Below, one piece after another: positions 7,654-19,226 of a DNA stretch of 24,000 nt. The notes beneath the pieces are model-generated. The model saw only the letters and a program-made list of their open reading frames with translations, was not told the origin of the DNA and did not search any database. The first letter of the stretch is position 1; each line of letters begins with the position of its first letter. The position numbers were made by a program, and so were the translations under genes. Where the stretch lies: positions 136,127 through 160,126 of the forward strand of contig QOCQ01000005.1 in the NCBI GenBank assembly GCA_003574685.1, given 5' to 3'. This DNA comes from Rhodospirillaceae bacterium SYSU D60007. GTDB lineage: Bacteria > Pseudomonadota > Alphaproteobacteria > Reyranellales > Reyranellaceae.

Positions 7654-10275
<2,622 letters not shown>

Positions 10276-10354
10276 ACCACGACACCCTTTCTCCAAAGCC
10301 CCCGTCAAGCGGCGGGCGATCGGGTGGACCCTCTGATGAGGCATCCACGATCCC

Positions 10355-10382
10355 ATATGGTGGTGCCTTGATCAGGAGCAAG
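10355..10382 (-). promoter_or_regulatory. Sigma32 (RpoH)-type heat-shock promoter of clpB
   Basis: The minus strand reads CTTGctc, 13 nt, CACCATAT, against the consensus CTTGAAA-N13-14-CCCCATNT. The -10 ends about 80 nt upstream of the clpB ATG. A 10-bp palindrome ccacgcgtgg (10386-10395) sits just upstream. Confidence 0.6.
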
Positions 10383-11651: not shown

Positions 11652-12533
11652 CTATCCGGGACTGAGGCGGCGGGCAAGGACCACACGGGGAATGCCGCCC
11701 AAATCCTTGTGGGTGCTGACGGCGCCGAAGCCCGCATCCCGCACCAGACGGGCGACCGCGGCGGCCTGGCCACGCCCCACCTCGAGGGCGACAATCCCGC
11801 CGGGCTGCACCAGATAGCCGAGCTGGCCGACGAGGCGGCGGTAGCAATCCAGCCCGTCGGCGCCGCCGTCCAGCGCCAGCCACGGCTCGTGCTCCGACAC
11901 TTCCGGATCGAGGGTTTCGATGTCGTCACTGGGCACATAGGGCGGATTGGACACCACGACGTCAAACACCTCGGCGATCCCTTCCCCCCAGTCGCCTGAG
12001 CGGAACGCCGCGCGGCCTTCAAGGCCCAGGGCACGGGCGTTCTGGCGGGCTATCACCAGCGCGCGGGCGCTGCGGTCAACGCCAAGCCCCGTCGCCTGCG
12101 GCAACTCGTGGAGCAGCGCCAGCAACAGGCAGCCGGAGCCGACGCCGAGGTCCAGAATGCGCAGCTTCCGGCCGCGATAGGGAACGGCTGCCATCACGGC
12201 ATCGACAAGGGTTTCGCTGTCGGGCCGCGGCGTCAGCACATCCGGGGTGACCCGGAAGCGCAGGCTCCAGAACTCGCGCCATCCCAGGATGTGGGACATG
12301 GGCTCGCGCGCAAGGCGGCGTGCGGCCAGCCGCTCGACCCGCGCCACGACCCCGGCTTCCAGCGGCGCATCGCGGCGGGCGACGATTGTCTCCAGTGTCC
12401 ACCCTGTCGCCTCTGCTACCAGCAGCCGCGCCTCCAGCCGGCTCTCGGCAATGCCCGCCGCGGCGAGCCGGGCCGCCATCGCCTGTACCAGCGCCCCCGC
12501 GGTGGGCTTCGCCCCTGTCTGTTCCCCCGTCAT
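11652..12533 (-). CDS. prmC: Release-factor glutamine N5-methyltransferase PrmC (HemK)
   Basis: 293 aa with the catalytic NPPY motif (VVSNPPYVPS), the SAM-binding motif ILDLGVGSGC, and a HemK N-terminal helical domain. Confidence 0.9.
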   Translation of the reverse strand: MTGEQTGAKPTAGALVQAMAARLAAAGIAESRLEARLLVAEATGWTLETIVARRDAPLEAGVVARVERLAARRLAREPMSHILGWREFWSLRFRVTPDVLTPRPDSETLVDAVMAAVPYRGRKLRILDLGVGSGCLLLALLHELPQATGLGVDRSARALVIARQNARALGLEGRAAFRSGDWGEGIAEVFDVVVSNPPYVPSDDIETLDPEVSEHEPWLALDGGADGLDCYRRLVGQLGYLVQPGGIVALEVGRGQAAAVARLVRDAGFGAVSTHKDLGGIPRVVLARRLSPG

Positions 12534-12653
12534 GCTTTGGCAAGCTGGCCGCCCGCAGTAGCGGATGCAAGAGGCTTGCGCGGCCGGGCGCGGCGTCCAA
12601 CCCCGTCCGCGCGCCGGCCTGGCCCCGCCGGGCTCGCCCGATACAGGGTTGTA

Positions 12654-12702
12654 CCCTTAACGAAGCTCGAGCTTGTCCGTTGCAAGGGACCGCAACTTGC
12701 GG
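12654..12702. promoter_or_regulatory. Cluster of palindromes in the prmC / response-regulator divergent region (candidate operator)
   Basis: A perfect 12-bp palindrome aagctcgagctt (12663-12674) is flanked by ccctt-aacg ... cgtt-gc-aaggg. A second palindrome ccgcaa-c-ttgcgg lies at 12690-12702, 23 nt before ATG 12725. Confidence 0.3.
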
Positions 12703-12724
12703 CCTGCGGCGGACGTTGGGGTAC

Positions 12725-13078
12725 ATGGCATTGCGCGTGTTCGTTGCCGAGGACGAGGTCCTGATCGCCCTGGTCCTGCAGGATATCCTGGAAGAGCTGG
12801 GCCATTCGATCGTCGGCCCTGTGGCACGGGTCGAGGACGCCTGCCGGATTGCCCGCGAGGGCGCGTTCGAACTGGCCATCCTTGACGTCAAGCTGGCCGA
12901 CAGCGACGTCTATCCGGTAGCCGAAATTCTCCAGACCCGCGGCGTTCCCTTTGCCTTCGCTACCGGTTACGGCCGCGACAGCCTTGCGGCCGCCTTCCGG
13001 GCGCGCCCCATCCTGCCCAAGCCCTACACAGAGCCGGACGTGGCCGCCCTCATCCGGCAGATGTGTGACGCTGACTAG
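12725..13078 (+). CDS. Single-domain response regulator of the PFxFATGY ('FAT GUY', SdrG/MrrA-like) family
   Basis: 117 aa, receiver domain only. It has the acidic pocket E9-D10, the phospho-acceptor D54 (AILDVKL, nt 12884-12886), and an exact PFAFATGY motif at residues 75-82 (nt 12947-12970). The track ORF's 135-codon upstream extension has no receiver homology. Confidence 0.85.
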   Translation: MALRVFVAEDEVLIALVLQDILEELGHSIVGPVARVEDACRIAREGAFELAILDVKLADSDVYPVAEILQTRGVPFAFATGYGRDSLAAAFRARPILPKPYTEPDVAALIRQMCDAD

Positions 13079-14774
13079 TCCGCAGCGGCACGACGTTGCC
13101 GGTGCGCATGGCCACCAGCGCGGTTGCCGCCTTGCGCGCGAGCTCGTCCTGGCCGAACGGCTTTCCCAGCACGGCGCTCTCGCCGACATCGCCCAGCGCG
13201 CTGTGGTCGGCAAAGCCGGTAATGAACAGCAGGGCGAGTCCCGGGCGACGCAGCCGCGCCTGGCGGGCAACATCAGCGCCGCTCATCCCGGGCATGGCGT
13301 AGTCCAGGATCATCAGCTCGATTTCCGGCAACCGGTGCAGCATCTCCAGCGCCGCACCACCGCTGCCGGCCTCGTGCACGCGATAGCCGAGATCGCGCAG
13401 CATGGCGGCGGTAACCTCGCGCACGGGATGGTCGTCGTCGACCAGCAGCACCTGCACGCCGGCGAACTGGCCGGCAACCACCGCCGGTGGCGGCGCCTCT
13501 TCGGCACGCTCGCCGGCAGCCGCACGCGGCAGATAGATGCGCGCCGTGGTGCCCTCGCCCTCGCGCGACTTGATGCGGACGCCACCGCCTGACTGCTTGG
13601 CGAAGCCCAGCACCTGGCTGAGCCCGAGCCCCGAGCCCTTGCCGACGTCCTTGGTGGTGAAGAACGGCTCGAATGCCTTGCGCAGCACCATCTCCGACAT
13701 GCCGGTGCCCGTGTCGCTGACGCAGATGGCCACGTACTCTCCGGCGGGCGGCTCCTCGGGCCATGCCGGTGCCTGCAACGTGACATTCTCCGTATGCACG
13801 GTGAGTGTGCCGCCTTGAGTCATGGCATCGCGCGCGTTGATGGCGAGGTTGAGCACCGCCAGCTCAAGCTGTGTGGGATCGACCAGGGCGGGCCACAAAC
13901 CACGCTGCAGGTGCGTATCGATGCGGATGCGGCCACCCATCGTACTCTGCAGCAGGTCGCGCATGCCGGCCACCGAGCCGTTGAGGTCGATCACCTTCGG
14001 CTCCAGCCGCTGACGCCGCGAGAACGCCAGCAACTGGTCCGTCAGCCGGGCGCCGCGCTCAGCCGCCGTGCGCATGTAGCCCAGGCGCTGCATGAGCTTG
14101 CCGTCGACGCCGGCATTGGCCAGCCCCTTCTCCAGGAAGCCGATATTGCCCAGCACCACCGTCAGCAGGTTGTTGAAGTCGTGCGCCACGCCGGACGTGA
14201 GCTGGCCTACCGCTTCCAGCCGCTGCATCTGCCGCAGCGTGCTTTCGATCTTCTCCCGCTCCTCGATCTGGGCCACGAGCTGGCGGTTTGCAGCCGCCAG
14301 CTCAGCCGTGCGCTCCTGCACGCGCAACTCCAGCTCTTCGTTCAGCCGGCGGCTCTCGTGCTGCCGGGTTCGTCCGCGCAGGCCGGTGCGCACGGCGCTG
14401 ATCAGCGTCGTGGGATGAAAGGGCCGCTCCAGAAAGGTGACGTTGCCCAGCGCTCTCATCAGCCCGGCCGCGGCAGGATTGCGCTCGACGCCGCCGCCGT
14501 GGCTGGTCAGCAGCACAAACGGAAAGTCGGACCACGGCGGCTGCGACGCCACCCATTCGCGCAAGGGGCGAAGGTCCTGCCCGCGCAGCGCCTCCTCTGT
14601 CACCACCGCCAGGTCGGCGCCGTAGACAAGGCGCTCGACCAGTTCCGAAATGTCGACGCAGATGTCGCAGCGAAGCGCCGCCTCGCGCAGGATGCTCTTG
14701 GCGACCACGGCATCCCGGCCCCGCGGTGCGAGGATCAGCGTCCGGTCGGCCGCCGGCACTGCAAGGGTAATCAT
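13050..14774 (-). CDS. Hybrid sensor histidine kinase: N-terminal pseudo-receiver, coiled coil, HisKA, HATPase_c, C-terminal receiver
   Basis: 574 aa with H-box VAHDFNNLL, N-box LAINARDAM, G-boxes DTGTGM and GSGLGLS. The C-terminal REC domain has VDDD and ILDYAMPGM. The N-terminal domain of about 120 aa has a receiver-like beta/alpha pattern but lacks the acidic pocket and phospho-Asp (LILAPRGRDA, LAVVTEEAL). There are no TM segments. Its ATG overlaps the kaiC-like stop (ATGA at 14771-14774). Confidence 0.9.
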   Translation of the reverse strand: MITLAVPAADRTLILAPRGRDAVVAKSILREAALRCDICVDISELVERLVYGADLAVVTEEALRGQDLRPLREWVASQPPWSDFPFVLLTSHGGGVERNPAAAGLMRALGNVTFLERPFHPTTLISAVRTGLRGRTRQHESRRLNEELELRVQERTAELAAANRQLVAQIEEREKIESTLRQMQRLEAVGQLTSGVAHDFNNLLTVVLGNIGFLEKGLANAGVDGKLMQRLGYMRTAAERGARLTDQLLAFSRRQRLEPKVIDLNGSVAGMRDLLQSTMGGRIRIDTHLQRGLWPALVDPTQLELAVLNLAINARDAMTQGGTLTVHTENVTLQAPAWPEEPPAGEYVAICVSDTGTGMSEMVLRKAFEPFFTTKDVGKGSGLGLSQVLGFAKQSGGGVRIKSREGEGTTARIYLPRAAAGERAEEAPPPAVVAGQFAGVQVLLVDDDHPVREVTAAMLRDLGYRVHEAGSGGAALEMLHRLPEIELMILDYAMPGMSGADVARQARLRRPGLALLFITGFADHSALGDVGESAVLGKPFGQDELARKAATALVAMRTGNVVPLRTSQRHTSAG

Positions 14775-16288
14775 TCCTCGCTCCCCAACAGTGGAGCCTG
14801 TGTGCCAACATAGGCCGGCACGCCGCGCAGCACGCCCTGGAACGCCTCCAGCGGGGCACCCAGCCTGACGCCGCCCTTCCTGATGCGGAACTCGCGCAGC
14901 GTGTTCTCGTGCGGACCCGTGCGCTTCTTGAGTACGGAAATGGCCCGGCGCACTTCGCCCATCGCTTCGAAAAATCGCAGCAGAATGACCGTGTCCGCGA
15001 GGTAGGTCACGTCGATCGGCTGATCGACGTCGCCGACGAGGCCGTGCTGGGCCACTGTCAGGAATGTCGAGGTGCCGCGGCGGTTGAGATACTGAAGAAG
15101 CTCGTGCAGATGCAGGATACCGAACGGCTCGTTGAGCATTGAGGCCTGGTAGCCGTTCAGGCTGTCGATCGCCACCATCCTGATCGTGTCGCGATCAACG
15201 CAGGTGCGTACGCGGTGGGCGAACTCGCCGGGCGAGACCTCGGCGGCATCAAGCTGCTCAATGGCGAGTCGTCCGTTCCCGTGAAACGCCTCGATGTCGA
15301 TGCCAAGCTGCCGGGCGCGCGAAAAGAGCAGTCCGATCTCCTCGTCGAACAGGAACATCGCGGCATTCTCGCCCCTGGCCATCGCTGCCGCGACGAACTG
15401 CACGAGCAACAGGGTCTTGCCCGTCCCTGCCGGCCCGATGACGAGAGTGCTCGATCCCGCGGTGATGCCGCCGCCCAGCAGTGCGTCCAGATCGCCAATG
15501 CCGCTGCTGATCACGTCACCGGCCGAGCGCTTGCGATATGGCGCCGCCACCAGCCGCGGATACACCTCCACGCCGCCGGAGGAGATCCTGAACTCGTGAT
15601 AGCCGTCGCTGAAAGCCTGGCCACGCGCCTTCACGATGCGCAAGCGGCGGCGCGCGGCACCATAAACCGGCGCCGTCTGGTCGAGATGAAGCACGCTGTG
15701 GGCAATGCTGTGCACGGCCCGGTCCATAGACTCGGCCGTCAGGTCGTCCAGCAGGATGACAGTCGAATTGTGCCGCGCAAAGTAGTGCTTGAGTCCCAGG
15801 ATCTGGCGGCGGTAGCGCAACGAGCTCTGCGCCAGCAAACGGATTTCCGACAGGCTGTCGATCACCACACGCTGCGGGCGGGTGCGTTCGATGGCATCGA
15901 ACATGCGCTGCGTCGTCTCGCCAAGCTCCAGGTCCGAAGAGTAAAGCAGGCTCTGGTGCTGGTCGGGATCAAGCACGCTTTCCGGCGGCACCAGCTCGAT
16001 GATCTCGATCAGCTCGCCCAGCTCCCAGCCATGCGAGCGAGCGCCGGCGCGCAGCTCCGGCTCGGTTTCGGCGAGGCTGACGTAAATGCCGGACTCTCCC
16101 GCCGCAGCGCCGGCCAGCAGGAACTGCAGCGCAATGGTCGTCTTGCCCGTGCCCGGGCTGCCTTCGAGCAGATGAAGGCGATTGCGGGCCAACCCCCCGT
16201 CTGCCACGGCATCAAGGCCCGCAATGCCAGTGAGCGCACGGGGAAGCGCCGTCTCGGCGTTTGTGTCGACAGATGCAGACCTGTTCAT
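14771..16288 (-). CDS. KaiC-like double-domain RecA-superfamily ATPase
   Basis: 505 aa from ATG 16288 (MNRSASVD...). It has two Walker A motifs, GSPGTGKT (nt 16139-16162) and GPAGTGKT, and Walker B-like motifs VVIDSLSE and VAIDSLNG. The KaiC CII-type C-terminal block DTVILLRFFEAMGEVRRAISVLKKRTGPHENTLREFRI is present. The track ORF's 52 extra N-terminal codons run through the predicted promoter. Confidence 0.88.
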   Translation of the reverse strand: MNRSASVDTNAETALPRALTGIAGLDAVADGGLARNRLHLLEGSPGTGKTTIALQFLLAGAAAGESGIYVSLAETEPELRAGARSHGWELGELIEIIELVPPESVLDPDQHQSLLYSSDLELGETTQRMFDAIERTRPQRVVIDSLSEIRLLAQSSLRYRRQILGLKHYFARHNSTVILLDDLTAESMDRAVHSIAHSVLHLDQTAPVYGAARRRLRIVKARGQAFSDGYHEFRISSGGVEVYPRLVAAPYRKRSAGDVISSGIGDLDALLGGGITAGSSTLVIGPAGTGKTLLLVQFVAAAMARGENAAMFLFDEEIGLLFSRARQLGIDIEAFHGNGRLAIEQLDAAEVSPGEFAHRVRTCVDRDTIRMVAIDSLNGYQASMLNEPFGILHLHELLQYLNRRGTSTFLTVAQHGLVGDVDQPIDVTYLADTVILLRFFEAMGEVRRAISVLKKRTGPHENTLREFRIRKGGVRLGAPLEAFQGVLRGVPAYVGTQAPLLGSEE

Positions 16289-16326
16289 GCGCCTGGCTTG
16301 CCTGATTGCTCGCGTCAGATGCGAAG

Positions 16327-16352
16327 AACGTCGCGTACTGCCAACCGGTTCC
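16327..16352 (-). promoter_or_regulatory. EcfG (general stress response ECF sigma)-type promoter upstream of the kaiC-like gene
   Basis: The minus strand reads GGAAC (16352-16348), a 17-nt spacer cggttggcagtacgcga, then CGTT (16330-16327). This is an exact match to the alphaproteobacterial EcfG consensus GGAAC-N16-17-CGTT. The CGTT ends 38 nt upstream of ATG 16288. Confidence 0.55.
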
Positions 16353-16437
16353 AGCCGCCAAACCGCCCCGCCCACGCCCCATTTACCGCGGGCAATCGGC
16401 GGCCCTTGTGGTGAGGGCCGAAGCAGTCGCCGGAAGC

Positions 16438-16476
16438 GCGCCACTCCAGTGGCGCCGGCGGCGTGCCAACGCCGCC
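16438..16476 (-). terminator. Two tandem GC hairpins just after the antiporter stop (possible non-canonical terminator or insulator)
   Basis: The first hairpin is ggcggcg (16457-16463) / cgccgcc (16470-16476) with a 6-nt loop. The second is gcgccac (16438-16444) / gtggcgc (16449-16455) with a 4-nt loop. Neither is followed by a U tract. Confidence 0.35.
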
Positions 16477-16488
16477 ATCATGCGCGGG

Positions 16489-18735
16489 CTAGCTGGACAG
16501 CAGCATGATGGAGCGCGGGGATGCCGCTCCGACGGCCGAGACGATCGGCCCGAATGACAGCCTGTCGCCGGTTCGCGCGCTCACGCCCATGATGAGCAGG
16601 TTGTGATCGCCGCGACGCGCCTGGCGGAGGATGGCGTCGGCCGGCGAAGCATCGTTGCGCAGCGCGGTGCGGACCGCGACGCCGAACTGCTCACCCAGCG
16701 CCACGATGCCCTTGAGGATCTCGTCCGCCTCGCTGCGAGTCCTCACGCGTGGCCAGCGTCGCGGAGAAAACGTGGCAGCTTCCGGCGCCACATAGAGCGC
16801 TGTCACCGTTGCATCACTCGCGCGGGCGATGGCGAGCGCGACCTCCGCGGCACGGCCGGCATAGGCGGTGCCGTTCACCGGCACCAGAATATTCAGATGG
16901 TATCCTGCCGGGTCCTGCGCGTGCGGCCCGCGCGCCGCCACGATGGCAACCGGCCCCTCGAACGGCGCGGCGATCTCGGCCACTGCTTTGGCGAAGTCTC
17001 CCGTCTTGAGGATGGCGCCGTCCACGCCGACGGTCAGCAGGTCGTAGCCCTTGGCCGCCTCGGCGGCGACCAGCTCCGCCGGCATTGCGCTGCCGCGGCG
17101 CGCCGTCACATCTGCCGGCACGTTCGCGCCATCGGCGTCCGGCGCGGCACCGCTGGCGGCGTCGCGGGCGATCTGTTCGGCGTCGGCGTCACGCTCGCGA
17201 TCGGGCGGGCTCCGCCCGGCCTGCGCACTGGCGAGGTCGATCACTGTCACGGGCGTACCTCGCGGACTGGAAAGCAGACCTGTCAGGCGGGCGGCGAGCT
17301 TTCCGCTCGCGCTGCCGTCTGTGACTGCCAGCAGACGTTCCAGCCGTGGCACGAAGCCACGTGCCTCCTGCGCCTCCCGCTCCAGTCGCGCTGCCTCCTC
17401 GGGTTTGAGCGGCAGGCGCGCCAGCGCCCAGCGCAGCGTGGGCGGCATGGCCATGGTCGTAATCACCGCCATGGCGACGATCAGGCTGAACAGGTCGCGG
17501 TCGAGGACGCCAATCGACAATCCGATCGTGGCGACAATGACCTCGGTAGATCCCCGTGCATTCATTCCGCAGGCCAGCGCCAGCGACTCGCGCAATGACA
17601 GCCCACCGATCGTGCCGCCAACAAGCGCGCCGGCGAACTTGCCGATGCTCGCGATCAGGACCAGCCCCAATCCCAGAGCCACGAGCACCGGGTCCTTCAG
17701 GATCGACAGATCAGCGCCGAGCCCCGCGAGGCCGAAAAAGACGGGCATGAAAAAAGCCGTGATCAGGCCCCGGAGCTGCGCGTCAATGTGACGGGTCAGT
17801 ATGGGCGACTGGCCGACGAGGATGCCGGCCACAAAGGCGCCGAGCACGGTGTGAACGCCGATCGCGTGCGTTATCAACGCCATGACGCCCATGACGATGA
17901 TGATGGCCGTAATGACGGGCAGTTCGCTCACGAAGCTGTCGTTCGACCAACGGATAATGGCGGCGACCGCCCGCCGCCCCAGGGTGAAGCTGACGGCCAG
18001 AAAGGCCAGCGTGCCAAGAACGCTTTGTGCAAGAGCGGCAGGCTCAACAGCGCCATGCAAGGCAAGCCCGAAGATCATCGCCATGATGATCCAGCCGATC
18101 GTGTCGTCGATGACGGCAGCGGCGAGGATCACCTGGCCCACGTCGCGCCGCATGAAGTTCATCTCCCGCACGATGACGGCCACGATCTTGACCGAGGAGA
18201 TCGAGAGCGCCACGCCGAGAAACAGCGACGTCAGCAGCCGGCGATCCGGATCGGGCAGCAGTGATTCAGGAAGAAGCTGTCCCAGTGCCACACCGCAAAC
18301 AAACGGCACAGTGATGCCGGCCACTGAAACGCTGACGGCGGCGCGGCGCACCTGGTTGATCAGCGACAGGTCCGTTTCCATGCCCGCAACCAGCAGCAGC
18401 AGCAGAATGCCAAGCTGCGACACCGCCGCCAGCATGCTCTGCTGTACCTCGTTGCGTGGAAACACTTGATGCTGCAGCTCGGGCAGCAGAGCGCCAAAAA
18501 CGGAAGGACCCAGGAGAATGCCGGCAATCAACTGGCCCATGACGGCCGGCTGACCAAGGCGCTGGGCGGCTTCGCCCAGGAGGCGACCCGCCAGCAACAG
18601 CAGCACGATCTGGCCGATGAAGACCGCGATGGCCTGATCGCCGCCAGCCTCGGCGGCGAACGCCGGCGAAACAGACAGGATCGTGGCGAGAGCGGCGGAT
18701 GCGGCGATGAAACCGGCCGCGCACTTCCCGATCAC
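16489..18735 (-). CDS. CPA2-family cation:proton antiporter fused to two C-terminal universal-stress-protein (USP) domains
   Basis: 748 aa from GTG 18735, which forms a GTGA overlap with the upstream stop. It has a signal-like N-terminus (IGKCAAGFIAASAALATILSVSPAFA-AE), a Na_H_exchanger core (GQPAVMGQLIAGILLGPSVFG ...) and two USP-like halves (LAVTDGSASG... and ILVPVNGTAYAGRAAEVAL...NLLIMGVSARTG). Confidence 0.85.
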   Translation of the reverse strand: MIGKCAAGFIAASAALATILSVSPAFAAEAGGDQAIAVFIGQIVLLLLAGRLLGEAAQRLGQPAVMGQLIAGILLGPSVFGALLPELQHQVFPRNEVQQSMLAAVSQLGILLLLLVAGMETDLSLINQVRRAAVSVSVAGITVPFVCGVALGQLLPESLLPDPDRRLLTSLFLGVALSISSVKIVAVIVREMNFMRRDVGQVILAAAVIDDTIGWIIMAMIFGLALHGAVEPAALAQSVLGTLAFLAVSFTLGRRAVAAIIRWSNDSFVSELPVITAIIIVMGVMALITHAIGVHTVLGAFVAGILVGQSPILTRHIDAQLRGLITAFFMPVFFGLAGLGADLSILKDPVLVALGLGLVLIASIGKFAGALVGGTIGGLSLRESLALACGMNARGSTEVIVATIGLSIGVLDRDLFSLIVAMAVITTMAMPPTLRWALARLPLKPEEAARLEREAQEARGFVPRLERLLAVTDGSASGKLAARLTGLLSSPRGTPVTVIDLASAQAGRSPPDRERDADAEQIARDAASGAAPDADGANVPADVTARRGSAMPAELVAAEAAKGYDLLTVGVDGAILKTGDFAKAVAEIAAPFEGPVAIVAARGPHAQDPAGYHLNILVPVNGTAYAGRAAEVALAIARASDATVTALYVAPEAATFSPRRWPRVRTRSEADEILKGIVALGEQFGVAVRTALRNDASPADAILRQARRGDHNLLIMGVSARTGDRLSFGPIVSAVGAASPRSIMLLSS

Positions 18736-19226
18736 AATTTTTCCGGCTTGCTGTCCATCCGATAGCGGAAATCGCAGTGGCTGGCGCCCTGCATGATGGT
18801 TTGCGTGCGCTCCATGGCGATGCGCGGATCGTAGCCCTCGATAAAGGTGCCGTCGCGGTTGCACGACAGAAGATGGCCGATGTCGCCCAGCCCCATCGCG
18901 CGGTACATCTCCGCGTAGCGGCAGCGCGTCACGTTGAAGTCGAGATGCGTCTCGTCCTGCCGCACCGGCTCGATGCGCAGCGCGTCGCCCTGCGTCCAGA
19001 GCGGCTGGATGGCGGCGAAGCTGGCGATCGACGTTCCGCCCGGCGCCTGGGCCGCGAATTGCCGGCCGGCCTCGACGGCGGCCTTCTTTACGGCACGCTC
19101 GATCACACCTTTGGCTGCCGCTTCACCGAACGCTGCCTTCATCTCCTCGTAGATCGGCTTGATGATCTCGGCTTCGATGCGGCGGCGCTCGAGAATGCCC
19201 ATCGGGGCGGCGGCTGGCTGACTCAT
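18732..19226 (-). CDS. L-2-amino-thiazoline-4-carboxylic acid (ATC) hydrolase-family protein
   Basis: 164 aa with an ATG start. The C-terminal Cys-containing block FNVTRCRYAEMYRAMGLGDIGHLLSCNRDGTFIEGYDP...QGASHCDFRY matches my recall of the ATC_hydrolase family. Confidence 0.7.
   Translation of the reverse strand: MSQPAAAPMGILERRRIEAEIIKPIYEEMKAAFGEAAAKGVIERAVKKAAVEAGRQFAAQAPGGTSIASFAAIQPLWTQGDALRIEPVRQDETHLDFNVTRCRYAEMYRAMGLGDIGHLLSCNRDGTFIEGYDPRIAMERTQTIMQGASHCDFRYRMDSKPEKL

Follow-up and report, generated by a model that had tools for sequence, protein, structure and literature searches.

A gene for a stand-alone receiver domain lies beside a kaiC-like gene and its partner histidine kinase in Rhodospirillaceae bacterium SYSU D60007, a member of the Reyranellaceae, and may connect this pair to general stress signaling. 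The gene occupies positions 12725-13078 on the forward strand of the window, by which we mean the whole 24,000-nucleotide stretch that was analyzed (GenBank assembly GCA_003574685.1, contig QOCQ01000005.1, positions 136,127 to 160,126). It is a real gene under purifying selection, and its product belongs to the FATGUY class of receiver-only proteins (motif PFxFATG[G/Y]). FATGUY receiver-only proteins are phosphorylated on one aspartate, have no output domain, and pass phosphoryl groups between kinases and phosphotransferases. A functional link between the receiver and the KaiC-kinase pair is plausible, and is favored by co-inheritance in a genomic islet, by recurrent pairings of such receivers with kaiC loci, by an analogous network in Pseudomonas, and by promoter motifs of the extracytoplasmic function (ECF) type. 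To the combined model, in which the receiver links the KaiC module with general stress signaling, we give somewhat under an even chance.

The reading frame encodes 117 amino acids followed by a stop codon, and was assigned from its translation, Pfam, matches to Sma0114 and SdrG, orthologs, codon differences, and a structural model. A single Pfam domain (Response_reg, residues 5-109) was found and no output domain. An earlier note on this DNA, made from the letters and their open reading frames, had described a receiver-only protein of this length with an exact PFAFATGY motif at residues 75-82, an intact acidic pocket (E9 and D10), a phospho-acceptor (D54), and the lysine of a PKPY sequence, all of which were confirmed on the translation of 12725-13078 (+) and by the lone Response_reg domain. 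E9, D10, D54, T80, and K99 are all present, with K99 lying within P98-K99-P-Y101. The predicted phospho-acceptor D54 (codon 12884-12886, +) was invariant in a 35-sequence alignment and aligned with the acceptor aspartates of Sma0114 and SdrG. In the motif itself (P75-F-A-F-A-T-G-Y82, codons 12947-12970, +, counted on the translation), P75, F76, and G81 were invariant among the 35 receiver homologs, while F78, T80, which is the conserved receiver threonine, and Y82 were at least 90% conserved. Four metagenome orthologs share 80-89% identity with the receiver, and codon differences relative to two orthologs were 33 synonymous and 23-24 non-synonymous; the orthologs and the synonymous excess are the reason for regarding the gene as real. 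An open frame at 12320-12724 was considered as an N-terminal extension and rejected, since no Pfam domain is gained by it, prmC overlaps it on the opposite strand, and ortholog P0007, which has the same ATG start, does not include it.

The predicted structure agreed with the class assignment. An AlphaFold model of the receiver built on 35 homologs had a predicted local distance difference test (pLDDT) score of 91.6 and the order beta1-alpha1-beta2-alpha2-beta3-alpha3-beta4, two short turns, and beta5-alpha5. Only two turns of three residues each separate beta4 (residues 76-80) from beta5 (residues 96-98), and since they stand in place of alpha4, this helix is degenerate. The PFAFATGY motif is placed at the end of beta4, and the K-3 position, three residues before K99, is occupied by Ile96 and not by an aromatic residue. 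In the FATGUY class, beta5 has no aromatic switch residue and alpha4 is degenerate or missing, as described for Sma0114 and SdrG (PMC9981736, PMC5964349). Foldseek searches with the model returned SdrG second, with a template modeling score of 0.87 and a root-mean-square deviation of 2.0 Å. By sequence, the solved relatives were, best first, Sma0114 (2lpm, E 1.6e-27), SdrG (5ieb, E 1.3e-20), and then PhyR receivers, and the best partial NCBIfam matches were to the PhyR receiver half and the PRK13435 response-regulator models. The exact motif PF.FATG[YG] occurs in three copies in the six-frame translation of the genome. The copy in the window is the only one without a kinase fusion; the other two form part of hybrid kinases of the PAS-HWE type.

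Within this class, the closest characterized relative is Sma0114 of Sinorhizobium meliloti (2lpm, 2m98), with ~45% identity over 111 residues. The earlier note had assigned the protein to the SdrG/MrrA type from its motif; membership in the FATGUY class held up, but orthology to SdrG or MrrA is uncertain, as the motif alone is insufficient for it, Sma0114 is closer, and SdrG matches three receivers of this genome almost equally well (79.3, 79.0, and 76.6 bits). In a receiver tree resting on 116 columns, the window clade did not group with SdrG and formed a long branch beside HWE-adjacent homologs. Like the window protein, Sma0114 is a single receiver domain in which the motif is PF.FATGY, alpha4 is weak, and the aromatic switch residue is missing. 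Its gene, however, adjoins that of the HWE kinase Sma0113, whereas the window receiver adjoins a HisKA hybrid kinase and KaiC and has no HWE kinase nearby. A passage in PMC5964349 ties Sma0114 to catabolite repression and polyhydroxybutyrate. SdrG (Sphingomonas melonis, 5ieb) shares the motif class and the fold, and both SdrG and MrrA (Caulobacter crescentus) are encoded by orphan receiver-only genes, as is the window protein. These two proteins serve as hubs in the phosphorelay of the general stress response. Both are phosphorylated mainly by HWE/HisKA_2 kinases (PMC5964349), and MrrA, SdrG, Sma0114, CckA-Rec, and CpdR, all receivers with FATGUY or FATGUY-like motifs, are phosphotransfer intermediaries or sinks (PMC9981736). 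Because such motifs mark receivers of this kind, we read the window protein as a putative stress-induced phospho-shuttle or sink.

The neighboring pair is encoded on the reverse strand. The kinase (13050-14774, -) is a soluble hybrid histidine kinase of 574 amino acids with Pfam and NCBIfam matches to HisKA, HATPase_c, and CckA-like models and a C-terminal receiver carrying a FITGF motif. Its start is overlapped by the stop codon of the gene for a two-domain KaiC-like ATPase (14771-16288, -; Pfam KaiC E 6e-72, NCBIfam KaiC 271 bits, below the equivalog cutoff). The N-terminal domain of the kinase (residues ~10-140, 14325-14774, -), defined by conservation, a model, and PDB matches, spans ~140 residues that are conserved across 27 loci. 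It was modeled as a (beta-alpha)5 receiver fold (pLDDT 86.5), its top PDB matches were all receiver domains, and E61 stands at the expected position of the acceptor aspartate. This receiver fold with a glutamate replacing the acceptor is the basis for regarding the domain as a pseudo-receiver. The domain also contains an invariant GRD, and ERPFHP replaces KPF. Residues 1-138 of the Pseudomonas kinase are sufficient for KaiC binding, and the preprint reporting this named the equivalent region a PAS domain, whereas it is here read as a pseudo-receiver (10.1101/2022.01.26.477890).

Conservation of the pair was assessed in three sets of loci, comprising the 13 KaiC-bearing genomes among 40 relatives (KaiC orthologs at 60-65% identity), 80 additional loci retrieved by a KaiC profile, and 18 new loci from 401 evenly drawn alphaproteobacterial genomes, 19 of which encode KaiC of this type. 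KaiC orthologs at 60-72% identity were followed by the same type of kinase in 13/13, 79/80, and 18/18 loci, respectively, and the kinases of the 79 loci contain the pseudo-receiver domain. At four loci from other Alphaproteobacteria (L183, L185, L250, and L258), the same pseudo-receiver domain precedes an HWE-type core and not HisKA; here the domain that faces KaiC has stayed the same, and the kinase core behind it has evidently been exchanged.

The receiver gene is divergent from prmC (11652-12533, -) and convergent with the kinase gene, and the 3′ coding ends of receiver and kinase overlap by 29 bp (13050-13078, from the open reading frame coordinates). The order prmC, receiver, kinase was kept in four contigs carrying the metagenome orthologs. 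The overlap of the 3′ ends was 26 and 29 bp in orthologous contigs, and one contig had a 16-bp gap. Scans found no terminator-like site downstream of the receiver gene and no sigma-70 promoter-like site around it. Four genomes of the same genus have, within ~180-400 bp of prmC, an ortholog of the window gene at 18732-19226 (164 amino acids) as the next gene. Since these genomes join the two genes directly, the receiver, kinase, kaiC, and a third unit together form an islet of ~6.2 kb peculiar to this lineage (12600-18731, boundaries approximate). The third unit (16489-18735, -) encodes a CPA2 cation:proton antiporter fused to universal stress protein (Usp) domains, as indicated by Pfam matches to Na_H_Exchanger and Usp. 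Orthologs of this CPA2-Usp gene in same-genus genomes are located on other contigs. A conserved partnership between CPA2-Usp and kaiC was also considered, and was rejected because the two adjoin in 0/102 other loci. Only direct repeats at chance level, and no flanking repeats, were found at the ends of the islet, and no integrase or mobility gene appeared in the list of open reading frames. On the far side of prmC, the window also contains clpB (7654-10356, -).

Both transcription units of the proposed system are preceded by motifs resembling those of EcfG-dependent promoters. Upstream of kaiC is an exact EcfG-type promoter sequence, GGAAC-N17-CGTT (16327-16352, -), 38 nt from the ATG, and the motif recurs before kaiC, with unrelated spacers, in Reyranella and several other alphaproteobacterial loci. 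A motif scan placed a candidate ECF/EcfG-type promoter, GCAAC-N17-CGTT (12692-12717, +), upstream of the receiver gene, ending 7 nt before its ATG. GCAAC-N16/17-CGTT was kept in all three available upstream regions of receiver orthologs, in which the spacers and the local palindrome differ (by eye). Genome-wide, such sites numbered ~98 in 10.7 Mb of both strands, compared to 70-86 at control spacings, which represents a weak enrichment. GCAAC variants are known among the EcfG-dependent promoters of S. melonis, several of them 2-10 nt from the start codon (PMC6599016). Judging from the position of the motif, the receiver mRNA is probably leaderless. Its transcription may depend on EcfG. The stretch before the receiver gene is rich in palindromes, including the perfect 12-bp palindrome AAGCTCGAGCTT. 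A second GCAAC-N16-CGTT (12659-12683, -) faces prmC in this stretch. It is a product of the local symmetry and could act as a divergent promoter or operator.

The genome encodes parts of a general stress response into which such a receiver could feed, as do those of the organisms in which SdrG and MrrA were described, namely PhyR, HWE/HisKA_2 kinases, and a PhyK/PhyT-like protein. PhyR scored 291 bits against a cutoff of 240, and its gene is flanked by those for a PAS-HWE kinase and a membrane HisKA_2 protein, the latter just after phyR. In total, seven HWE/HisKA_2 kinases and three EcfG-like sigma genes were found. Receiver-only genes with a looser FATGUY-like motif elsewhere in the genome adjoin HWE kinases or a sigma gene. 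The strict motif GGAAC-N15-18-CGTT was not found before phyR or the three EcfG-like sigma genes, where near-consensus sites were present instead, with GGAAC-N17-TGTT ~140 bp upstream of phyR and GGAAC-N16-GGTT before one of the sigma genes. The EcfG consensus of this host is therefore only loosely defined. An exact GGAAC-N16-CGTT was located just after phyR (C55:208224-208248), before the membrane HisKA_2 (PhyK/PhyT-like) gene.

In the combined model, the receiver would be transcribed from its own ECF/EcfG-type promoter and would thus be induced together with the convergent, putatively EcfG-driven kaiC-kinase operon. Phosphoryl groups would then pass between the receiver and two partners, namely the neighboring KaiC-coupled hybrid kinase, at its DHp histidine, and, as with other FATGUY proteins, the HWE/HisKA_2 proteins of the PhyR relay. 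The receiver would thereby tie the KaiC module to general stress signaling as a shuttle or sink. We infer every phosphotransfer step in this scheme, the dependence on the sigma factor, and the direction of phosphate flow. The connectivity that the earlier note had proposed for the window pair, from a HisKA-family hybrid kinase to a FATGUY receiver, has a precedent in C. crescentus, where the HisKA hybrid kinase CC2874 phosphorylates MrrA directly, with no requirement for its own Rec domain (PMC5964349). CC2874 differs in being membrane-bound, whereas the window kinase is soluble and has an N-terminal pseudo-receiver. CC2874 was also considered as the KaiC-associated kinase of Caulobacter, and this was rejected, as the use of "noTM" constructs indicates a membrane kinase and PMC5964349 makes no mention of KaiC; it is a precedent for transfer from HisKA to FATGUY only. 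The kaiC2-kaiR2 system of Methylobacterium extorquens AM1 is similar in that a KaiC homolog without KaiA or KaiB has a downstream regulator gene, and it affects UV and heat resistance, a stress function and not that of a clock (reviewed in PMC8069551). It differs in that the passages on it in this review report neither a receiver-only partner nor a link to PhyR or EcfG.

Several observations weigh against a link of this kind. The receiver gene is not co-transcribed with the kaiC-kinase operon, so that it is a neighbor and not a member; the earlier note was correct in placing it beside the pair, but had omitted that it lies on the opposite strand and converges on the operon. Its promoter motif is one mismatch from GGAAC-N16/17-CGTT and lies within the palindrome-rich stretch. 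The neighboring kinase has a DHp of the HisKA type, unlike the HWE/HisKA_2 type usual for homologs of the receiver. The islet represents a single evolutionary event, and the adjacency persists only in the orthologs at 80-89% identity, which form one narrow lineage. An adjacent FATGUY receiver was present at 0/13 loci of the relatives and 0/18 of the class-sampled loci, and was absent in 76/80 of the wider loci, so the idea raised in the earlier note that such a regulator might be a constant part of orthologous kaiC-kinase loci did not hold (4/80 adjacent at best). Approximately 95% of ~90 alphaproteobacterial kaiC-kinase loci are without an adjacent receiver-only gene, including the nearest relatives of the pair, at 70-72% KaiC identity (L146, L155, L156, L228, and L241). 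At L228, the closest kaiC-kinase relative in its search (72% KaiC identity), a gene for a full OmpR-type regulator of ~240 amino acids converges on the kinase gene (L228:10235-10996, -), which we take to be CtrA-like.

Furthermore, 44 of the 53 closest homologs of the receiver in other genomes directly follow an HWE/HisKA_2 kinase core on the same strand, and KaiC was found within 6 kb of none of the 53. Homologs outside the receiver's own clade share at most 57% identity with it and, like Sma0114, are mostly located after HWE/HisKA_2 kinases. The distribution of the receiver is thus largely independent of that of the kaiC-kinase pair, with rare adjacency and mostly HWE-linked homologs, a pattern that the earlier note had named as evidence against its proposal. 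These data are in line with a rival explanation in which the receiver is an orphan serving only the HWE/HisKA_2 kinases of the genome, whether it acts on the PhyR relay as hub or sink or belongs, like Sma0114, to a different HWE pathway, and its position beside kaiC is an accident of the way in which an accessory stress islet came together. The HWE-linked genes of the homologs, the relationship to Sma0114, the HWE/HisKA_2 kinases that mainly phosphorylate SdrG and MrrA (PMC5964349), the convergent orientation and separate promoter, and the usual absence of such a receiver from kaiC-kinase loci all favor it, as does the CPA2-Usp gene, which is likewise unlinked to kaiC elsewhere and suggests that the islet is a mixture. 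This explanation does not account for the absence of an HWE kinase near the gene, when four other FATGUY-like receivers in the genome are fused or adjacent to HWE kinases, and it is also opposed by the excess of independent recurrences at kaiC-kinase loci over the flanks and by the same topology in Pseudomonas loci. We consider it a substantial possibility, though short of probable.

The distribution also bears on whether the gene could be functionless today, a silent or decaying relic of what was once an HWE kinase-receiver pair. A kinase of the usual partner type is not adjacent, and no close ortholog was found in five same-genus genomes (best match 44%), as might be expected of a remnant. 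The catalytic residues are all intact, however, synonymous codon differences exceed non-synonymous ones, the promoter-like motifs upstream are conserved, and the structural model is confident, which makes such a leftover highly improbable.

Receivers were sought among all open frames of the kaiC loci, and FATGUY-type receivers were found at a few of them. In two loci from Boseaceae and a related metagenome-assembled genome (L202 and L203), a convergent FATGUY-type receiver with the motif PVIVATGY lies 30 bp after the kinase. In Sphingopyxis (L216), a FATGUY receiver gene precedes kaiC by ~125 bp and shares its strand. The latter is sister to SdrG in the tree, with 100/99 support, and has GGAAC-N16-GGTT ~45 bp before its ATG. 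In L185, a FATGUY-like receiver is fused to the C-terminal end of a KaiC-linked kinase with an HWE core. Since the copies are scattered in the receiver tree, FATGUY receivers came to kaiC-kinase loci by independent events, in at least three lineages besides that of the window. At distances of up to 500 bp from the operon (~0.12 Mb in total) they were found in three lineages, compared to one or two hits in the remaining flanks (~1.2 Mb), a rough, post hoc contrast with P ~0.01. Signaling genes cluster in general, which bears on this statistic. In Sphingopyxis sp. R3-92, the SdrG ortholog, kaiC, and a hybrid kinase gene are arranged head to tail behind the GGAAC-N16-GGTT motif (L216:4490-8640), in what looks like a three-gene general stress operon.

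A comparable arrangement is found in Pseudomonas, where the kinase gene is immediately followed, in 12/15 Pseudomonas-type loci, by a receiver-only gene in convergent orientation. Across the loci from Pseudomonas and related bacteria (L160-L199), the gap to the kinase is 4-189 bp and the motif is VIFISGY, an FxSGY form that is FATGUY-like. This form is that of CckA-Rec and CpdR (PMC9981736). In Pseudomonas putida, a single-domain regulator interacts with both KaiC and the kinase (10.1101/2022.01.26.477890). The window resembles this network (PP_3834/PP_3835 and the regulator in KT2440) in its KaiC, at 61-64% identity, in a kinase that is orthologous in type and has the conserved N-terminal domain, and in that the kinase gene is met at its 3′ end by a convergent receiver-only gene. 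The regulators themselves differ, as that of Pseudomonas falls on the outgroup side of the receiver tree, apart from all FATGUY/PhyR-type receivers, and was not found by tblastn with the window receiver at E 1e-5. To our knowledge, Pseudomonas lacks a PhyR-NepR-EcfG system.

The Pseudomonas network suggests another rival, in which the receiver partners exclusively with the KaiC-kinase module, either taking up phosphate as a sink or providing an output by protein contact, with no flow into PhyR-NepR-EcfG. The shared convergent position and the published interactions among KaiC, kinase, and regulator (10.1101/2022.01.26.477890) support this, and FxSGY motifs mark intermediary or sink receivers generally, CckA-Rec and CpdR being examples (PMC9981736). 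The window receiver, though, belongs to the alphaproteobacterial FATGUY/PhyR-like group and not to that of the Pseudomonas regulator, characterized FATGUY proteins are promiscuous, and the EcfG-type motifs before both transcription units point to the stress response. A receiver confined to the KaiC module is thus improbable.

If the combined model is extended beyond this lineage, the non-circadian KaiC and pseudo-receiver kinase module of Alphaproteobacteria would be an input branch of the PhyR-NepR-EcfG system, wired through FATGUY receiver-only proteins. The hub gene, normally unlinked, would have been captured beside the module in this islet, in the sdrG-kaiC-kinase locus of Sphingopyxis, and in the Boseaceae loci. 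We offer this generalization tentatively and consider it rather unlikely as it stands. Published work on KaiC outside cyanobacteria has described a partner kinase and, in Pseudomonas and Methylobacterium, stress phenotypes, with no defined output. FATGUY receivers are established hubs in Alphaproteobacteria, through which phosphate is gathered for the general stress response. Should the link fail, the locus would simply add to the orphan FATGUY receivers, this one being part of an accessory stress islet. Phosphate exchange between the receiver and the KaiC-coupled kinase, if it takes place, would provide a concrete output route for KaiC and a new kind of input to the stress response. Under the generalization, the module would itself be induced by EcfG, and the slow phosphorylation state of KaiC could feed back on the stress response as a timer or a latch.

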